Shown piece after piece: positions 3,321 to 27,045 of a DNA stretch of 32,000 nt. The stretch's first letter is position 1. Each line of letters starts with the position of its first letter. The position numbers and the translations under genes are program-made. The stretch comes from Geotalea uraniireducens Rf4 (GTDB lineage: Bacteria; Desulfobacterota; Desulfuromonadia; Geobacterales; Geobacteraceae), in the NCBI RefSeq assembly GCF_000016745.1, contig NC_009483.1:2940001-2972000 (forward strand). Reading direction: 5' to 3'. Under the pieces are notes generated by a model. That model searched no databases and was not told the origin of the DNA. It worked only from the letters and a program-made list of their open reading frames with translations.

Positions 3321-6300
3321 GATCCTGATCCTGGTCCTGGTCCTGGTCCTGGTCCTGGTCCTGGTCCTGGTCCTGGTCCTGGTCCTGGTCCTGGTCCTGG
3401 TCCTGGTCCTGGTCCTGGTCCTGGTCCTGGTCCTGGTCCTGGTCCTGGTCCTGGTCCTGGTCCTGGTCCTGGTCCTGGTCCTGGTCCTGGTCCTGGTCCT
3501 GGTCCTGGTCCTGGTCCTGGCCCTGGTCCGAGTCCGGGTCCAAGACCGCGTCCGACCCCAGGCCCGACCCCGGGTCCGAGTATACCCAATAATTATCAGC
3601 CACCCCGTGATCCACTGGTTGTTGACCTGGACCGCGATGGTGTTGAAACGGTCGGCATAGGCTCCCGTGTCATGTTCGATCATAACAACGATCGAATTGC
3701 TACCACTACCGGCTGGATCAAGTCCGATGACGGCCTTCTTGCGCGTGATATCAACGGCAACGGTAAAATCGATTCCGGACTAGAGTTGTTTGGTGACCAG
3801 ACGAAGCTGAGTAATGGTCTTACTGCCTCTAACGGCTTCAGCGCCCTGAGGGATCTGGATGCCAATAACGACGGTAAATTCGACCCCAACGATCCAGCCT
3901 TCGGCGAACTCAGAATCTGGCGCGACCTCAACCAGGACGGCAATTCCCAGGCAGAAGAACTTACCACCCTCTCAGACGCAGGTGTTGCCTATATCGACCT
4001 AGCGGCTGTCAACCGCAATGTCTGGCAGAACGGGAACACCATAGCATCAGAGAGTACACTTACTAAGGAAGACGGCTCTACCGCTACAATAGCAGAGGTG
4101 AACCTTGCCAACAATCCCGCGGACAGCCGTTTTGTCGATACAGTGACAGTTTCTGATGCTGCCATGGCACTTCCGGCACTGCAAGGTTCCGGTAAAGTGC
4201 GTGACCTGCAAGAGGCTGCAACCCTCTCTCCCGCTCTCCAGGAAGTGTTGACACGCTACAGCGCAGCTACGACACGAGCGGAGCAGTTGGCGTTGCTGGA
4301 CGAGCTTCTCCTTACCTGGGCCGATACTTCCGGTATGTCCAAATCCCTTGAGGAACGTGATCCTGCAGCATACAGGGTTGAATATCTGTCATTCGGAAAT
4401 ATACGCAGGAGCGACCATCTGGTTAAAAATACCGCAGGTGGGATTACCTCTGGAACAGTACAAAACGCCGCTGACCCCCTTATCGATGAAACGTATCGCG
4501 GACTGATCGATACCTGGAATAACCGGATTCATATCCTAGAGTCTTTCTATGGCAGCTATTTCTTTGCTGTGCCCGGACAAGCACAGGAAGGAAGCGGCGC
4601 AAGAACCGGTATGTGGGTAGATTACACTGGTAGCACGGCCCTAAATGCTGCGAACAAAAACAAACCTGCCCTAGCGATCAACTATGCGCAGCCTCAACTC
4701 GATATGCTGGGCCAGGATTATCAAGCACTCAGGCAAACGGTGTACGATGGTCTCATTTTACAAACCCGTATGAGAATGTATCTCGAAATTATTGACACTA
4801 CCACAACCTATACTGATACCTATTCGGACATTGACATCTATGATGATTCCTACACTTATACCAATACTTATTCCGGCTCAGATCCAGACATCAAACCAGA
4901 AACCGCGATCGGTTACACTTTCGATGTGACCCGCCTTACCCAAGCATTCGTGGATAAAATTGATGCCGATCCGATTAACGGCATTACCGACCTTATAGAA
5001 TTCAACAGATGCACTAAGGGTCTTCTTGCCGATACCCCGTGGGACGGCGCAACCCTTCTGGAAAATAAGATTCGTTCGCTGCCCATAACGCCGGAACTCC
5101 AGGCCCTCTATCAGGAGTTCAATGTACGGTTCAACGGTATCCAAGGGGGAAACGGCGACGACATTATTCTAGGTGACGATCAGAGTCGCACCATTTACGG
5201 CGGCAACGGCAATGACACGCTCTTTGGAGGAGGCGGAAACGAGATGCTGGTTGGCGGAAACGACAACGATATCATTTCCGGCGGGGCGGGGGACGACCAA
5301 CTTAGGGGCGAGGCGGGTGATGACCAGTACATCTTCGGACGGGGAAGCGGAAATGACAACATAGTCGACGGTCAGGGACGCAACAGTATCCTTTTCTCCG
5401 GCCTCAATCCGGGCGATATCACCGTAACCACACCGAACAGCTATAACGATGACTTCGTCTTTAGCATTAAGGACACGGGAGAAACTCTGCATATTGCAGG
5501 AGGGTGGAACTGGTATTGGTACGAAAATACTTCCATTAACCGCTTCATTTTCGCCGATGGGACGGTCTGGAACAAAGAGAACGCCATTAATGCGGCGACG
5601 TCCTATCCAACGGAAGGCGATGACCTGATCATTGGCAGCCGCCTGACCGATTCTATTGATGGGTTAGGTGGGAATGATACGATAATCGGTCGCAGCGGGG
5701 ATGACGTCATTGACGGGGGCGCCGGCGACGATCTTCTCATCGGTTCCGCTTATGCCTACAACGATTATTATACAGGAGCGCAGCGAATAAATGCCACCGT
5801 CGTCGAGGCCAACGGCAACGACATCTACTATTTCGGCCGCGGCTCCGGCCGCGATACCATTATCGACGGCGACGATACCCAAAACACAGATCGACTCAGG
5901 TTCTTTGAGGACGTTGCTCCCTCTGACATCGCCGTTAGCCGCAATAACGACGACCTGATCCTCACCATCAAGGACACCGGCGACAGCGTCACCATCCGCA
6001 ATCACTTTCTGGAAAATTACCCCGGCGCACCCGAGCATCACGACTACGAGGTGGAATTAATCGAATTCGCCGACGGAACCAAGTGGACCTGGAACACCCT
6101 CCGCGACATGCTGCTGACCGGAACGGACGGCGCGGACACCATTATCGGCTACCGCCAGGACGACGCCATCAGCGGTGGCGCGGGGAACGATTACATCGAC
6201 GCCCGAAGCGGCAACGACGTGATCTCCGGTGGTGACGGCAACGATACCATCTCTGCCGGGCTGGGGGACGACATCATAGACGGCGGCACGGGCGATGACA

Positions 6301-21386: not shown

Positions 21387-21671
21387 ATGGTCTCATACCT
21401 CTGCCTGGTGCTGCTCATGTGCGGCATACTTTACGGCTACCTTAATAATGCCCTTGAAAACTATCTGCTGGCCGAAATAAAGGACAATCTGACAAACGAA
21501 ACCAGGATGGCGGCGCTCATGGTGAGCAGAAAAGGCAGAGACCTGCACCGTGATGCCCAGGCAATTGCTGTAGCTATCGGCAAAGAGGTGAAGGCCAGGA
21601 AGCCGGCCATGGTCCTGAGGCTTAAGCGTATACTTTCACCGAATCTTTCCCAACCTGTAACATGGTTGTAA
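21387..21671 (+). pseudogene. Truncated N-terminal remnant of a PhoR-like sensor kinase (94 aa, one TM segment, no kinase domains)
   Basis: It occupies the position expected for phoR. Only a TM helix and the start of a sensor region are present. No H-box, N, G1 or G2 motifs occur before pstS. The ORF runs into the pstS Pho box. Confidence 0.5.
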
Positions 21672-21689
21672 CATTTAGCAGGCAATAAT
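21633..21689 (+). promoter_or_regulatory. Pho-box promoter of pstS
   Basis: CTGTAAC (21655-21661) and TTGTAAC (21666-21672) are two 7-bp direct repeats 11 bp apart. Weaker heptamers CTTTCAC (21633) and CTTTCCC (21645) precede them. AATAAT, a -10-like hexamer, lies at 21684-21689. The pstS ATG is at 21724. Confidence 0.6.
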
Positions 21690-21723
21690 AAGCCCAAAGC
21701 AAACATAAAAAAGGAGGACATAC

Positions 21724-22752
21724 ATGCTCAACATCATCCGTAAAAGCATTCTGACCCTGGCCATCCTGGCGGTAACCGCCATCTCCGGCCAGGCATCGGC
21801 AGAAACGCTCATCAACGGCGCAGGCGCAACCTTCCCCTACCCGCTCTACTCCAAGTGGTTCGCCGAATACGCCAAGGTCGATCCGACCGTCAAGTTCAAC
21901 TACCAGTCCATCGGCTCAGGCGGCGGCATCAAGCAGATCACTGCCCAGACCGTCGATTTCGGCGCTTCCGATAAATTCCTCTCCGACGCAGAACTGAAGG
22001 CTGCCCCCGGCAAGCTGCTCCACATCCCGACCGTTATGGGCGCCGTGGTCGTCACTTACAACGTTCCCGGCGTGGGTAAAGGGCTGAAGCTTTCTTCCGA
22101 AGATGTGGCTGATATCTACCTGGGGAAGATCACCAAGTGGAACGACCCGAAGATCGCCAACGACAACCCCAAGATCAAGCTTCCCAACCAGCCGATCATC
22201 GTTGTTCACCGCTCTGACGGGAGCGGCACCACGAGCATCTTCACCGACTATCTTTCCAGCGTCAGCCCGGAATGGGCAGGCAAGGTGGGCAAGGGTGCTT
22301 CCGTCAAGTGGCCTATCGGCCTCGGCGGCAAGGGTAACGAAGGGGTTGCCGGACAGGTCAAGACCACCCAGTACACCATCGGTTACGTGGAACTGGCCTA
22401 TGCCTTCGAAAACAAGCTTCCTTTCGCCACATTGAAAAACAAGAGCGGCAATTTCGTCGAGCCTTCCATCAAGTCCACCAGCGCAGCAGCTGCCGGCGCG
22501 GCCAAATCCATGCCTGCCGATTACCGCATCTCGCTGGTCAACCAGCCGGGCAAGGATGCCTACCCGATCGTCGGCTTCACCTGGCTCCTCGTCTACCAGG
22601 ACCAGAAGGACAAGGTAATAGGAAAGAAGCTGGTCGAGTTCCTCAACTGGGAATTGAAGCATGGCCAGAAGATGGCCGACAAGATCCTCTATGCGCCACT
22701 CCCTGCTAACGTGGCGAAGATGGTGGAAAAAACCGTCAAGAGCATCAAGTAA
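21724..22752 (+). CDS. pstS: Phosphate ABC transporter periplasmic phosphate-binding protein
   Basis: Signal peptide followed by the GAGATFPYPLYSKW motif. SDGSGTT and the rest of the protein are typical of PstS. The pst operon context supports the call. Confidence 0.93.
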   Translation: MLNIIRKSILTLAILAVTAISGQASAETLINGAGATFPYPLYSKWFAEYAKVDPTVKFNYQSIGSGGGIKQITAQTVDFGASDKFLSDAELKAAPGKLLHIPTVMGAVVVTYNVPGVGKGLKLSSEDVADIYLGKITKWNDPKIANDNPKIKLPNQPIIVVHRSDGSGTTSIFTDYLSSVSPEWAGKVGKGASVKWPIGLGGKGNEGVAGQVKTTQYTIGYVELAYAFENKLPFATLKNKSGNFVEPSIKSTSAAAAGAAKSMPADYRISLVNQPGKDAYPIVGFTWLLVYQDQKDKVIGKKLVEFLNWELKHGQKMADKILYAPLPANVAKMVEKTVKSIK

Positions 22753-22771
22753 CAGCTTCAAACACCAATCC

Positions 22772-22817
22772 GCCCGGGCAGGGTCCGCCACCGATTGCAC
22801 CTGCCCGGGCCTTTTTC
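22772..22817 (+). terminator. Intra-operon hairpin/attenuator after pstS
   Basis: Perfect 11-bp stem GCCCGGGCAGG / CCTGCCCGGGC (22772-22782 and 22800-22810), a 17-nt loop, then CTTTTTC. Confidence 0.6.
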
Positions 22818-22861
22818 TGCCGAAACTTTTATTACAACCGTTTCAACATTTCGTTACAAAC

Positions 22862-23836
22862 ATGTGGAGGAAGGCCGTGCCGCCCGAAGCAATCTCACAG
22901 AAGTGGAACATCAAAACCGGCCTGAACGGCGACTTCATCTTCAAGGGGATCACCGTCGTTTTCGCCTTCAGCATCCTCGCCATACTGCTTCTCATGGTCT
23001 ACGAAATGGTCGGCGAGAGCCTCCCCGCCATGAGAAAATTCGGCTGGCGGTTCATCACCAGCAGTGATTGGGATGCGGTGCAGGAGACCTTCGGCGCGCT
23101 TCCCTACCTCTGGGGCTCGGTGGTTTCATCGATCCTCGCCCTCCTTCTCGCAACGCCGCTTTCCATCGGCAGCGCCGTCTTCATCACCGAGATCGCGCCG
23201 AAAAAGTTCGGCGGCGTGATCGCCGCCCTGGTCGAGCTCCTGGCCGCCATCCCGAGCGTCATCTACGGCCTCTGGGGGGTGCTGGTCATGGCGCCATGGC
23301 TGCAGCGGACCGTCCAGCCGTTTCTCATCGATCACTTCGGCTTCCTCCCCCTCTTCAAGGGGGCACCCTACGGGGTGAGCATGCTCGCCGCGGTCTTCAT
23401 CCTGATGATCATGGTGGTGCCGATCATCACCTCCATCACCAAGGAGGTGCTTCTGGCCGTGCCCCAGAGCCAGAAAGAGGCTGCCATCGCCCTCGGCGCG
23501 ACCCGCTGGGAGATGATCCGCATGGCAGTCCTCCCCTACGGCCGCTCCGGCATCCTGGGAGCGGTGATCCTCGGCCTGGGGCGGGCCATCGGCGAGACCA
23601 TGGCGGTCACCATGGTGATCGGCAACACGCCGCAGATATCCCTGTCGCTCCTCTCCCCCGCCTACACCATGCCGAGCGTCATCGCCAACGAATTCGCCGA
23701 GGCAAGCTCGCAGCTCCACTCCGCGGCGCTCATGGAGATCGGCCTCATCCTGCTGGTGGTCACCCTCGTCATCAACGCCCTTGCCCGCTTTCTGATCTGG
23801 AGCGTGAACCGAAAACAGAGCGGAGGTGGACTATGA
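22862..23836 (+). CDS. pstC: Phosphate ABC transporter permease PstC
   Basis: Multi-TM protein with the EAA-like loop (KEAAIALGATRWEMI). The start is uncertain. The ATG at 22862 is used; the GTG at 22877, preceded by GGAGGAAGG, is an alternative. The track ORF start at 22661 overlaps pstS. Confidence 0.88.
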   Translation: MWRKAVPPEAISQKWNIKTGLNGDFIFKGITVVFAFSILAILLLMVYEMVGESLPAMRKFGWRFITSSDWDAVQETFGALPYLWGSVVSSILALLLATPLSIGSAVFITEIAPKKFGGVIAALVELLAAIPSVIYGLWGVLVMAPWLQRTVQPFLIDHFGFLPLFKGAPYGVSMLAAVFILMIMVVPIITSITKEVLLAVPQSQKEAAIALGATRWEMIRMAVLPYGRSGILGAVILGLGRAIGETMAVTMVIGNTPQISLSLLSPAYTMPSVIANEFAEASSQLHSAALMEIGLILLVVTLVINALARFLIWSVNRKQSGGGL

Positions 23837-24675
23837 TGCGGAGTGTCGCCCTGCGCAAGGCAAAAAACCTGCTGATGACGGCGCTGATGGTCGCTGCGAC
23901 CCTGTCGGTGCTGGTGCCGCTCGTCTTCATCTTCGTCCATATCGTGAAGATGGGACTTAGTTCCGTAAATCTCGACTTTTTCACCCAGATACCGAAACCG
24001 ACCGGCGAGACCGGCGGCGGCATGGCCAACGGCATGGTGGGCTCCGCGGTGATGATCGCCATGGCCTCGTTAATAGGCCTCCCCATCGGCATCTTCGGCG
24101 CCATTTACCTGGCCGAATACGGCGGCAGCCGCATCTCCACCGTCATCCGCTTTGCCGCCGACGTACTTTCCGGCATCCCCTCCATCATCACCGGCATGGT
24201 CGCCTACACCCTGCTCGTGGTGCCGATGAAGGGCTTTTCCGCCCTGGCCGGCGCAGTGGCCCTGGCGATGATCATGATCCCCATAGTGCTCCGCACCACC
24301 GAGGAACAGCTGAAGATGGTCCCCGGCACCCTGCGTGAAGCCTCGCTGGCACTGGGGGTGCCGCTCTGGCGCACGAGCCTCAAGGTCACCCTGAGGAGCG
24401 CCATGACCGGGGTCATGACCGGCATACTCCTCTCCGTCGCCCGGGTAGCGGGGGAAACCGCGCCGCTCCTCTTCACAGCTCTCGGCAACCAGTTCTGGAG
24501 CAGGAAACTCACCGAACCGATGGCGGCGATGCCGCTACAGATCTTCAACTTCGCCATCTCGCCATACGAGGACTGGCACCGCCTCGCCTGGGCAGGCGCC
24601 CTGGTCCTGGTGACGGTCATGTTCTCCTTGAGCCTGGCTGCGCGGTATTTCGGCAGAAGCAGACAAGAAGGCTGA
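23833..24675 (+). CDS. pstA: Phosphate ABC transporter permease PstA
   Basis: MMRSVALRKAKN... begins at an ATG overlapping the pstC stop (ATGA at 23833-23836). It carries TM segments and the loop REASLALGVPLWRT. The 255 codons upstream in the track ORF are a Gly/Arg/Pro-rich out-of-frame read of pstC. Confidence 0.9.
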   Translation: MMRSVALRKAKNLLMTALMVAATLSVLVPLVFIFVHIVKMGLSSVNLDFFTQIPKPTGETGGGMANGMVGSAVMIAMASLIGLPIGIFGAIYLAEYGGSRISTVIRFAADVLSGIPSIITGMVAYTLLVVPMKGFSALAGAVALAMIMIPIVLRTTEEQLKMVPGTLREASLALGVPLWRTSLKVTLRSAMTGVMTGILLSVARVAGETAPLLFTALGNQFWSRKLTEPMAAMPLQIFNFAISPYEDWHRLAWAGALVLVTVMFSLSLAARYFGRSRQEG

Positions 24676-24727
24676 CAACCTGCCACGGAGACACAGAGAC
24701 ACGGAGAAAAACGAAAAATACAACATT

Positions 24728-25082
24728 GTCGAACCGCAAAGTCGCAAAGGGCGCCAAGAAAACTTAAAAAAAGCCAGCGTTGTCCGGTTTGGTTTTTGCT
24801 TACGTCCCGTAGGGACAGAATACTGGTAGCCGGGGAATTCATTCCCCGGTCATCCAGGCGAAATATCATCACGTCACGTACATGACGTGGGGAAATATAG
24901 CATCTCATCCGGGGGATGAATCCTCCGGGGGATGAATCCCCCGGCTACATTCGAACGCCCCTAATGGGGCTTAACAACCTTGATGCACAAACCAAACCGG
25001 ACAACGCTGAAAAAAAGCTATTTTTTAGTGCCTTAGACAAAAAGAAAGTAGTTTTCGATTTTACTTTGCGAACTTTGCGGTT
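24728..25082. repeat. Outer inverted repeat (CGCAAAG-type palindromic element) whose centre received the MITE
   Basis: The left arm GTCGAACCGCAAAGTCGCAAAG...GAAAACT (24728-24764) is the imperfect reverse complement of AGTTTTC...CTTTGCGAACTTTGCGGTT (25050-25082). A further CTTTGCGGTT copy lies at about 25098-25107. Confidence 0.55.
24775..25009. mobile_element. 235-bp MITE (non-autonomous IS4-family derivative) with a 9-bp target site duplication AAAAAAAGC
   Basis: Terminal inverted repeats CAGCGTTGTCCGGTTTGGTTT[T/G]TGC match at 24 of 25 positions. Perfect direct repeat AAAAAAAGC at 24766-24774 and 25010-25018. There is no coding capacity. The interior is rich in hairpins. Confidence 0.88.
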
Positions 25083-25161
25083 TAGGCTCTTTGGGGCCTT
25101 TGCGGTTCAAAGGTTCTGATTCTATTTATACGTATTTCTGGCAAGAACAAAAGAGGTCTGA

Positions 25162-25920
25162 ATGAACACCAAGGTAAAACTGGAAAATCTCAACGTCCAT
25201 TTCGGCAGCAACCACGCGGTCAAGGATGTCTCCATCGACTTCCCGGAAAACAGCGTCACCGCCATCATCGGCCCTTCGGGGTGCGGCAAATCGACGGTGC
25301 TCCGCTCCATCAACCGGATGCACGACCTGGCGCCTGCGGCACGGGTCACGGGCAAGATCATCCTTGACGACACCGACATCTACGACAAGGGGGTGGACCC
25401 GGTCTCCATCAGGAGAAGGGTCGGCATGGTCTTCCAGAAACCTAACCCCTTCCCGGCCATGTCGATTTATGATAACGTGATTGCCGGTTACAAGCTGAAC
25501 GGCAGGGTCAACCGGAGCGAGGCGGACGAGATCGTCGAGTCGTCTCTCAAACGGGTCGCCCTCTGGGACGAGGTGAAGGACCGGCTGAAGGCAAGCGCCA
25601 TGGAACTTTCCGGCGGCCAGCAGCAAAGGCTCTGCATCGCCAGGACCATTGCCGTAAGACCGGAGGTGATCCTCATGGACGAACCGGCTTCGGCTCTCGA
25701 CCCGCTCTCGACCCTGAAGATCGAGGAACTGATCGAGGAACTGAAGGAGAAGTACACCATCATCATCGTCACCCACAACATGCAGCAGGCCGCCCGCGTC
25801 TCCGACTTCACCGCCTTTTTCTACCTGGGAGAGCTGATCGAATGCGGCGAAACGAGGAAGGTCTTCACCACCCCGGACAAGAAACAGACCGAGGATTACA
25901 TCACCGGCCGATTTGGGTAA
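25162..25920 (+). CDS. pstB: Phosphate ABC transporter ATP-binding protein PstB
   Basis: Walker [10 protein letters not shown], signature [13 protein letters not shown], Walker [12 protein letters not shown] and the typical PstB C-terminus [10 protein letters not shown]. Confidence 0.95.
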
Positions 25921-25926
25921 GAACCG

Positions 25927-25954
25927 GTTCGACGTTCGACGTTCGACGTTCGAC
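25927..25954. repeat. (GTTCGAC)4 heptanucleotide tandem array
   Basis: Four perfect copies plus a partial GTT, starting 7 nt after the pstB stop codon. Confidence 0.97.
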
Positions 25955-25973
25955 GTTGAAAAACCTTAAACCT

Positions 25974-26071
25974 GAAACTTCGAACTTAGAACTTCGAACT
26001 TAGAACTTAGAACTTAGAACTTCGAACTTCGAACTTCGAACTTAGAACTTCGAACTTCGAACTTCGAACTT
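25974..26071. repeat. ([C/A]GAACTT) heptanucleotide tandem array: 13 exact units plus one degenerate leading unit
   Basis: Units start every 7 nt from 25981 to 26065. The first base follows the pattern C A C A A A C C C A C C C. The array ends 17 nt before the phoU ATG. The unit is the reverse complement of GTTCGAA, so it is inverted relative to the upstream GTTCGAC array. Confidence 0.97.
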
Positions 26072-26087
26072 AAAACATGAGGTTACC

Positions 26088-26759
26088 ATGGAAAGAGAAC
26101 ATTTCAGCAAAGTATTCGACGAGGAACTGAACACCATCCGCGAGAAGCTCCTCGAAATGGGGGGGAAGGTGGAGGTGATGATCGCCAACTCGATGAAATC
26201 CCTCGTGGAGCGGGACTCCGAGCTGGCCGAACGAACCATTGCCTTTGACCACGAGATCAACCACCTGGAGATGGAGATCGACGAGAGATGCCTGGAAGTG
26301 CTGGCGCGCCGCCAGCCGGCAGCCCGCGACCTGCGTTTCATCACCCTGGCGCTCAAGATCGTCACCGACCTGGAGCGGATCGGCGACCAGTGTACTGGCA
26401 TTGCCAAAAGGGCCAAGGAGCTGAACATGGAGCCGCCGCTCAAACCTTACATCGACCTCCCCCGCATGGCCGACTGGGCTTCGATGATGGTCAAGGAAGC
26501 GCTCGACGCCTTCGTCCGCGGCGACGACACCCTGGCGATCAAGGTCTGCAAGGACGACCAGTTCGTGGACGAGCTGAACGAGCAGATCCAGCGGGAACTC
26601 CTCACCTTCATGATGGGGGACCCGTCCACCATCAGCCGCGCCATCAAGGTCAACTACATCTCCAAGTGCCTGGAGCGGATCGCGGACCACGCCACCAACG
26701 TGGCAGAAATGGTCATCTTCATGGTCAAGGGGAAGGACATCCGCCATACCATCGCCTGA
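26088..26759 (+). CDS. phoU: Phosphate signalling complex protein PhoU
   Basis: Two PhoU repeats with D...E..C motifs (EIDERCLEVLARRQP..DLR; ERIGD and ERIADHATNVAE). It is the last gene of the pst operon. Confidence 0.93.
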   Translation: MEREHFSKVFDEELNTIREKLLEMGGKVEVMIANSMKSLVERDSELAERTIAFDHEINHLEMEIDERCLEVLARRQPAARDLRFITLALKIVTDLERIGDQCTGIAKRAKELNMEPPLKPYIDLPRMADWASMMVKEALDAFVRGDDTLAIKVCKDDQFVDELNEQIQRELLTFMMGDPSTISRAIKVNYISKCLERIADHATNVAEMVIFMVKGKDIRHTIA

Positions 26760-26783
26760 TCTGCAAGCGGGTTGATCGCAAAG

Positions 26784-26812
26784 GGGCGCAGCGGCTGTTG
26801 CGCCCTTTTTTT
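26784..26812 (+). terminator. Rho-independent terminator of the pst-phoU operon
   Basis: GGGCGCA / TGCGCCC stem with an 8-nt loop, followed by seven T residues (26806-26812). Confidence 0.75.
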
Positions 26813-27045
26813 GGAAGAACATTCTCCCGACGGAGGAAGAAGCACCCTCTCGTATATTGGTTTCTTGAACAACGGATATCCCTTCCACTGAATATCAGTT
26901 GGGTCAGATGCCGCCGGCAAAGGTTCTCAGTTCAACGCAAAGCCATTGTTCCAAATCGGCAATGTCATACACGAAATGCTTCCATGCGGGTCATTGCACC
27001 CAACGACACAATTGTTACATTTATGTAAATTATGACAGTCAAACC

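Follow-up and report, generated by a model that had tools for sequence, protein, structure and literature searches.

In the window analysed here, a stretch of 32,000 nucleotides of the Geotalea uraniireducens Rf4 genome, pstB lies downstream of pstS, pstC and pstA on the forward strand and is itself followed by phoU. The pstB gene (25162-25920 in the list of open reading frames) encodes an ABC transporter ATPase (Pfam ABC_tran, E 3e-32) and ends with a TAA stop codon at 25918-25920, and phoU (Pfam PhoU, E 4e-47) occupies 26088-26759. The intercistronic spacer between them is 167 nt long (25921-26087, forward strand), and 127 of these nucleotides (76%) belong to two arrays of heptanucleotides, as seen in the sequence itself and with Tandem Repeats Finder (TRF).

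The left arm is G/T-rich and repeats GTTCGAC from 25927 to 25957, its first base being the seventh after the pstB stop; TRF counts 4.4 copies with 100% matches. The non-repeat centre, GAAAAACCTTAAACCT (25958-25973), has the same letters in both paralogous copies of the operon described below. The right arm (25974-26071) is C/A-rich and consists of a degenerate GAAACTT (25974-25980) followed by 13 exact (C/A)GAACTT units (25981-26071), whose first letters run C A C A A A C C C A C C C; TRF reports the array as 13.7 copies with 93% matches. Both arrays thus hold at least three head-to-tail 7-nt copies by TRF, which is how the heptamer class is defined here. The arrays are separated by 19 non-repeat bases (25955-25973), and we count the loop as 16-19 nt. 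Past the exact right-arm units come a degenerate AAAACAT and GAGGTTACC before the phoU ATG, and the phoU Shine-Dalgarno sequence GAGG (26079-26082), 5 nt upstream of the ATG, lies outside the arrays. Since CGAACTT is a rotation of the reverse complement of GTTCGAA, the arrays are opposed, and as the right-arm units can be read as TTCGAA or TTAGAA plus a C, the right arm is also mostly self-complementary. The original prediction, made from the letters of the sequence, had described just this layout of the 167-nt spacer, and it agrees base for base with the sequence and TRF; the unit order it gave was reproduced exactly, and the arrays are inverted relative to each other as it stated, the second unit being the reverse complement of GTTCGAA.

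The operon ends with a terminator-like hairpin (GGGCGCA...TGCGCCC followed by seven T residues, 26784-26812, forward strand), identified by eye. A consensus scan, which also missed this hairpin downstream of phoU, found no promoter-like or terminator-like site in the spacer (25921-26087). The G+C-rich stem and U run of an intrinsic terminator or attenuator are absent from the spacer, and AAAACATGAGG stands directly 3' of the right arm. The suggestion that the arrays form an attenuation structure is not supported by these results. Rfam covariance models gave no match in the spacer at E values up to 1. The arrays are confined to the transcribed but untranslated stretch from the pstB stop to the phoU ribosome-binding site.

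Other features were observed in the same window. The pstS-pstC gap (22753-22861) has a G+C-rich hairpin (GCCCGGGCAGG...CCTGCCCGGGC) followed by CTTTTTCT; with its U run it is a terminator- or attenuator-like stem past the binding-protein gene. A MITE of 237 nt with terminal inverted repeats of about 25 nt lies in the pstA-pstB gap (24773-25009); it is absent from the paralogous operon and has 33 near-full-length copies in the genome. Near-threshold hits to Rfam Acido-Lenti-1 fall within it, at 24803-24849 (reverse strand) and 24925-24971 (forward strand), with 33-36 bits against a cut-off of 37, and the Acido-Lenti-1 RNA motif may be part of a mobile element in this genome. Far upstream, at 3323-3541, there is a perfect hexanucleotide array, (TCCTGG)x36.5. 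Several of its frames are open, and translation would give (Pro-Gly)n, (Ser-Trp)n or, from the opposite strand, (Asp-Gln)n.

Variation between operon copies and close strains

The segment from the Pho-box promoter to the terminator (21634-26813, forward strand) is duplicated in the genome, as seen with blastn against the genome and a MAFFT alignment. The second copy lies about 1.2 Mb away in inverted orientation (genome positions 1771152-1766237), and its phoU (1766294-1766962) encodes a protein that is 100% identical. The duplication ends at 26813, i.e. at the terminator-like hairpin of the operon. It is the copy in the window that keeps the ancestral neighbours, by synteny with the metagenome contig ERZ27247098 k141_68630, and IS copies flank it. 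Outside the repeats the two copies are more than 99.9% identical. Six differences were found in the alignment over about 4.9 kb, and three of them fall within the 127 nt of the arrays; the others, spread over some 4.8 kb of flank, are a 1-nt indel, the MITE insertion and one substitution. The left arm has 4.4 copies in the window and 3.4 in the paralogue, a 7-nt difference at 25927-25933. In the paralogue the right arm is made up of 11 units (C A C C A A C A C C C), and it differs from that of the window by a unit switch at 26002 (A/C) and by 14 nt, two units, at 26017-26030.

Metagenome contigs encoding an identical PhoU were obtained through an exact-protein look-up, and their pstB and phoU DNA is 99.3% identical to that of the window. 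Their spacer is 244-251 nt long and cannot be aligned with the spacer of the window: the left arm consists of GTGAGTC-type units and the right arm of GACTCAC-type units, 22 or 23 of the latter depending on the sample. These one-unit differences among contigs are weaker evidence than the paralogues, because assemblies of repeats from short reads can err. An exact-pattern scan of the metagenome contigs for the junction between the pstB end and the array gave no match. In ERZ27247098 k141_68630 (1-1200) and two more contigs the stop codon and left arm (TAAAAGGCCGTGAGTCGTGAGCAGT) are triplicated, which makes a 24-nt higher-order repeat directly 3' of pstB.

The unit changes between the paralogues, together with the strain variants, demonstrate that the copy number is unstable. 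Whole 7-nt units are added to and lost from the arrays, and unit variants are exchanged, at a much higher rate than that of mutation in the flanks. A slippage-prone tract had been proposed from the sequence, and that part of the proposal stands: the paralogues differ by one left unit, two right units and one C/A switch, and among strains, where a check of copy number had been suggested, contigs with identical PhoU vary both in how many units they have and in the unit family itself.

Heptamer arrays in the genome

The genome is a single contig of 5,136,364 bp with 54% G+C, and its relatives belong to Geotalea, Geomonas and Geobacter. TRF finds 244-254 arrays of period 7 in it, covering 12.2 kb, against 12 of period 6 and 28 of period 8. 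Exact runs of at least three units number about 165 at period 7 against 4-16 at periods 5, 6, 8 and 9, and a count over periods 4 to 12 gave 150 exact runs at period 7 against 0-12 at the others, an excess that excludes a chance origin of the arrays. Gene positions were taken from a purpose-built, simple codon-usage gene caller and are approximate, and with these 172 of the 254 arrays fall wholly outside genes, 85% of the genome being coding. By the same gene calls, the neighbouring genes are co-oriented for 168 arrays, convergent for 23 and divergent for three, and heptamer arrays occupy 5.6% of the co-oriented spacers as against 0.6% of the divergent ones. A search for further GAACTT(C/A) arrays had been proposed; the genome has about 254 arrays of period 7 in all, and these include 38 inverted neighbour pairs.

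The pairs have a marked polarity. The G/T-rich arm comes first in 37 of the 38, beginning 2-6 nt past the stop codon, and 8-22 nt separate the end of the C/A-rich arm from the start. Unpaired arrays follow the same tendency: 3' of stop codons the sense strand is G/T-rich in 62 cases and not in 17, and ahead of starts it is C/A-rich in 27 against 17. The pair between pstB and phoU obeys this class-wide rule, with its G/T-rich arm past the stop and its C/A-rich arm ahead of the start. A replication-strand cause of the polarity was rejected, the post-stop bias being equal for genes on the leading and the lagging strand. An apparent preference for four units in the TRF counts proved to be an artefact of the score threshold, as exact runs fall steadily in number from three copies up. 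More than 40 different canonical units occur in the genome, which is the richest in the GTTCNAN unit family among 61 genomes searched; certain genera of the bacterial family have these units in abundance, and the genomes searched from other genera gave none.

Two kinds of genes were located with respect to the arrays. Heptamer arrays flank, within about 130 nt, genes of the 23S rRNA intervening-sequence protein family (PF05635) at genome positions 4460331-4460845, 4467500-4468248, 4470805-4471371 and 3775153-3775535. Nine dispersed frames of about 320-370 aa (e.g. 1123558-1123887 and 946162-946485) carry a weak Y1_Tnp (IS200-type) domain at 35-66 bits; they are additional to the ordinary IS200-like copies of 160 aa and are not associated with heptamer arrays.

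The arrays in the spacer are one instance of a known genome-wide class of heptameric simple-sequence repeats, and the question left by the original prediction, whether such repeats are already catalogued, can be answered with yes. Mrazek, Guo and Shah (2007) found heptamers to be the most abundant among long simple-sequence repeats with units of 5-11 nt and proposed a slippage origin, as summarised in PMC4692102 and PMC4679880. The genome studied here shows the same excess of period 7 in a large genome of a free-living non-pathogen; as represented in those summaries, the survey differs in being statistical and in leaving aside opposed pairs and persistence at particular junctions. The closest parallel is given by the heptameric GGGNATC and GGGGA(C/T)T repeats of Xanthomonas and Nostoc (Rehm et al. 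2015, PMC4692102). Like the arrays here, the GGGNATC repeats form very many tandem 7-nt units, are intergenic and enriched between aligned reading frames but rare between divergent ones, vary in length and sequence at the same junctions of close relatives, and have been noted in inverted arrangements. They are G-rich on the coding strand just past stops and on the non-coding strand just ahead of starts, which is matched here. They differ in having G tracts, which GTTCGAC, TTCGAAC and TTAGAAC do not, in their preference for four units, not seen in the exact runs of this genome, and in their hosts, which are not Geobacteraceae.

Another member of the bacterial family, Geobacter metallireducens, has short arrays of tandem heptanucleotides called Gmet_H4##, which lie at 49 sites both between and within genes and have been annotated as putative regulatory elements (Aklujkar et al. 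2009, PMC2700814). They were found by BLAST as a fixed four copies of GGGACCG/GGACCGG, whereas other units in 3-14 copies are found here; a GGGACCG array is present at the pstB-phoU junction of Geomobilimonas luticola. The STRR heptanucleotide repeats of Calothrix and Nostoc (Mazel et al. 1990, as cited in PMC4692102) and the TAACTGA repeats of Beggiatoaceae (MacGregor 2015, PMC4679880) are likewise dispersed, intergenic tandem heptamers, often adjoining start codons, with other units and in other hosts. The TAACTGA sets are mainly direct repeats just upstream of starts, with one inverted set reported (PMC4679880). None of the heptamer repeats in this work has an established function (PMC4692102, PMC2700814, PMC4679880). 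In the literature searched we found nothing relevant on stem-loops between pstB and phoU.

Two better understood systems can also be compared. The REP and BIME elements of enterobacteria are imperfect palindromes that sit at the ends of operons or, where neighbouring genes are co-oriented, in the transcribed gaps between them, and they are absent from promoters; they can act as barriers to mRNA decay, and REPs share about 35 nt of conserved consensus and owe their mobility to RAYT transposases. The arrays here differ from them in having no consensus beyond the 7-nt period and no association with Y1 transposases. The contingency loci of host-adapted pathogens are slippage-prone repeats of 1-5-nt units with a copy number that varies between strains, situated inside reading frames or between promoter elements. 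The hypermutable copy number is shared, but here the tract belongs to a housekeeping operon and sits past a stop codon and ahead of a ribosome-binding site.

The junction in related species and its predicted folding

Period-7 arrays are present in the pstB-phoU spacer of 17 out of 29 relatives; a wider sample of 77 species has them in 22. In several others the spacer holds hexamer arrays or palindromes of unrelated sequence, and in three of the 29 and nine of the 77 it is shorter than 40 nt and has no hairpin. The longest orthologous spacer among about 100 species is 355 nt, and no genes were found inside the spacers of these species. The unit varies with the genome (GTTCGAN, GTTCTAN, GTGAGTN, GGGAATC, GTGAGAC, GTGAAAN, GGGACCG), and within each genome the right arm complements the left despite this turnover. 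When the left half of a spacer is paired with its own right half the mean energy is -35 kcal/mol, against -21 kcal/mol with the right halves of other genomes, although the halves were split at each sequence's own fold, which biases toward own-half pairing. The observed difference was matched by none of 10,000 permutations, the related genomes compared not being independent samples. Arrays are rare elsewhere in the same loci, and in many of the orthologous spacers GAGG stands directly 3' of the right arm.

In the predicted RNA fold of the window spacer, the left arm pairs with the first units of the right arm, and the remainder of the right arm pairs with itself, since TTCGAA is palindromic. 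The fold is more stable than those of shuffled sequences (z -3.2 to -4.2), and the best single structure makes up 0.2-2% of the ensemble, which bears out the idea of interrupted 6-bp helices in many alternative registers. The spacer of the paralogue gives a z of -1.75, with 13 of 200 shuffles folding at least as well. The cost of opening the phoU ribosome-binding site is predicted at 5.1-5.2 kcal/mol for both natural alleles and at 6.1 without the arrays, and an in silico grid of unit numbers gave 4.6-6.8 kcal/mol without any trend. Masking of the ribosome-binding site by the hairpin was rejected on these predictions, the opening cost being equal in both alleles. Sense and antisense strands were compared in 27 array pairs of the genome; the sense strand was the more stable in 13 and the antisense strand in 14 (Wilcoxon p 0.83), and the orthologues gave the same result. 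As both strands fold equally well, there is no G-U signature of selection on the transcript, and selection on the sense-strand RNA through G-U asymmetry was thereby dropped as a candidate.

Discussion

What is new here is the hypervariability between paralogues, the difference in unit family between strains and the conservation of the junction. The explanation we favour, and regard as probable with some reserve, is that the arrays are an effectively neutral, slippage-driven repeat pair which is tolerated between the stop codon and the ribosome-binding site, and which is not a switch. Changes in length would arise through replication slippage, and the complementarity of the arms would be kept by hairpin-templated correction or by weak selection. 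Arms can coevolve without selection through hairpin-templated repair, as in quasipalindrome mutation. What makes the pair tolerable would be its ability to fold back, as RNA or as single-stranded DNA, presumably leaving the stop codon near the ribosome-binding site and the site itself free, and the copy number would then drift while phoU is affected little if at all. Arrays occupy the junction in 17 of the 29 relatives and 22 of the 77 species, far more often than a neutral filler would at the base rate of 5.6%, and this counts against neutrality. Together with the complementary arms and the substitute palindromes in heptamer-free relatives, it points to some selection for a hairpin.

The strongest competitor is a selected intercistronic RNA hairpin, of which only the structure matters and the sequence is free to change. 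We consider it possible, if on balance somewhat unlikely. Such a hairpin could be cut by a double-strand RNase, e.g. RNase III, or block 3'-to-5' decay, and in either case uncouple the mRNA levels of pstSCAB from those of phoU; alternatively, it could loop out the spacer so that ribosomes ending at pstB re-initiate at phoU. No other reading accounts so well for how often the junction is occupied and for the complementary arms, and the excess over the base rate, the pairing of own over foreign halves and the z-scores of the window fold all speak for it, as does the extent of the arms from just past the stop to just ahead of GAGG. Heptamer arms moreover bracket three of the six genes of the 23S-rRNA-intervening-sequence protein family in the genome; in rRNA such intervening sequences are excised by RNase III at the flanking stem. 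On the other hand, RNA-level selection should have left, through G-U pairing, a bias of fold stability toward the sense strand, which is missing, and the fold of the paralogue hardly stands out from its shuffles. The arms are also unequal, with four against 13 units and one mismatch per unit, the own-fold split point favours the own-half result, and the species with short spacers and no hairpin show that the element is dispensable. The wider form of this idea, that the pstB-phoU junction of Geobacteraceae is a structure-only fold-back hairpin, rebuilt again and again from fast-evolving heptamers with coevolving arms, seems to us doubtful and rather unlikely.

The unstable copy number would also fit a contingency tract, in which slippage switches or tunes the translation or transcription of phoU, and the arrays do lie directly upstream of phoU, with a copy number that varies between paralogues and contigs. 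We find this phase-variation reading, which the original prediction had put forward for phoU translation, highly unlikely. With the arrays sitting between the stop and the ribosome-binding site, a change in unit number spares the reading frames, any promoter spacer and the distance from the site to the ATG; there is no promoter-like site within or adjoining the arrays; the predicted opening cost is the same for both alleles and has no trend with copy number; and both alleles are carried in one cell, on identical operons. The same class of repeat is present at hundreds of housekeeping junctions, and Rehm et al. argued against phase variation from the occurrence of their repeats at many such junctions (PMC4692102). 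An origin in a mobile element is also very improbable, whether the pair is taken as the vacant docking site or the footprint of a small cassette, such as those of about 0.5 kb in which heptamer arms enclose a gene for a 23S-rRNA-intervening-sequence protein (Avd-like), or as a REP-like element that a Y1 (RAYT-type) transposase moves. In favour of a cassette, four of the six PF05635 genes in the genome have heptamer arrays next to them, and three have them at either end, but none of the orthologous spacers holds a gene, the loop is short here, and there is no conserved terminal sequence. Mobilisation of the RAYT/REP kind was rejected because the 14 Y1_Tnp genes are no nearer to arrays than random positions are: their nearest arrays are 1-81 kb away, and the median for random positions is 14 kb.

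A reader of the 7-nt periodicity, be it a cold-shock-type protein, a HutP-type protein or another regulator, or a non-B structure such as a G-quadruplex, is the explanation to which we give least credit, and we hold it to be extremely unlikely. UUAGAAC units would give a UAG-N4-UAG spacing, which we take to resemble HutP sites and have counted in favour of protein binding, but a search of the genome gave no HutP homologue, and a HutP-like reader was discarded. CspB-type proteins bind one heptamer per monomer, according to work cited in PMC4679880, and G-quadruplex formation has been shown for the GGGNATC repeats (PMC4692102). In GTTCGAC, CGAACTT and AGAACTT there is no GG or GGG run at all, and without G tracts a G-quadruplex is impossible here. 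Against a sequence-specific reader in general stand the dozens of unrelated unit sequences across the genome and the different unit that close strains have at the same site.

Conclusions

In many large bacterial genomes, heptamers rank with the most abundant kinds of simple repeat. Taken alone, the locus is one more member of the heptamer class in this genome. It is at the same time a natural experiment, with two near-identical operons in one cell that differ in repeat number, near-identical strains that have a different unit at the same place, and an opposed pair that is kept across a bacterial family. The question it makes testable is whether such arrays are neutral products of slippage that are tolerated because they fold away, or mRNA hairpins under selection. 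If the hairpin at this junction is indeed rebuilt from heptamers with its structure alone preserved, which we consider doubtful, heptamers would be raw material for making and maintaining intercistronic stems, and these stems would be possible substrates of double-strand RNases, as at the flanks of the genes for 23S-rRNA-intervening-sequence proteins, or loops that bring a stop and a start codon together. The long-standing puzzle of the heptamer repeats would then gain a concrete and testable function.
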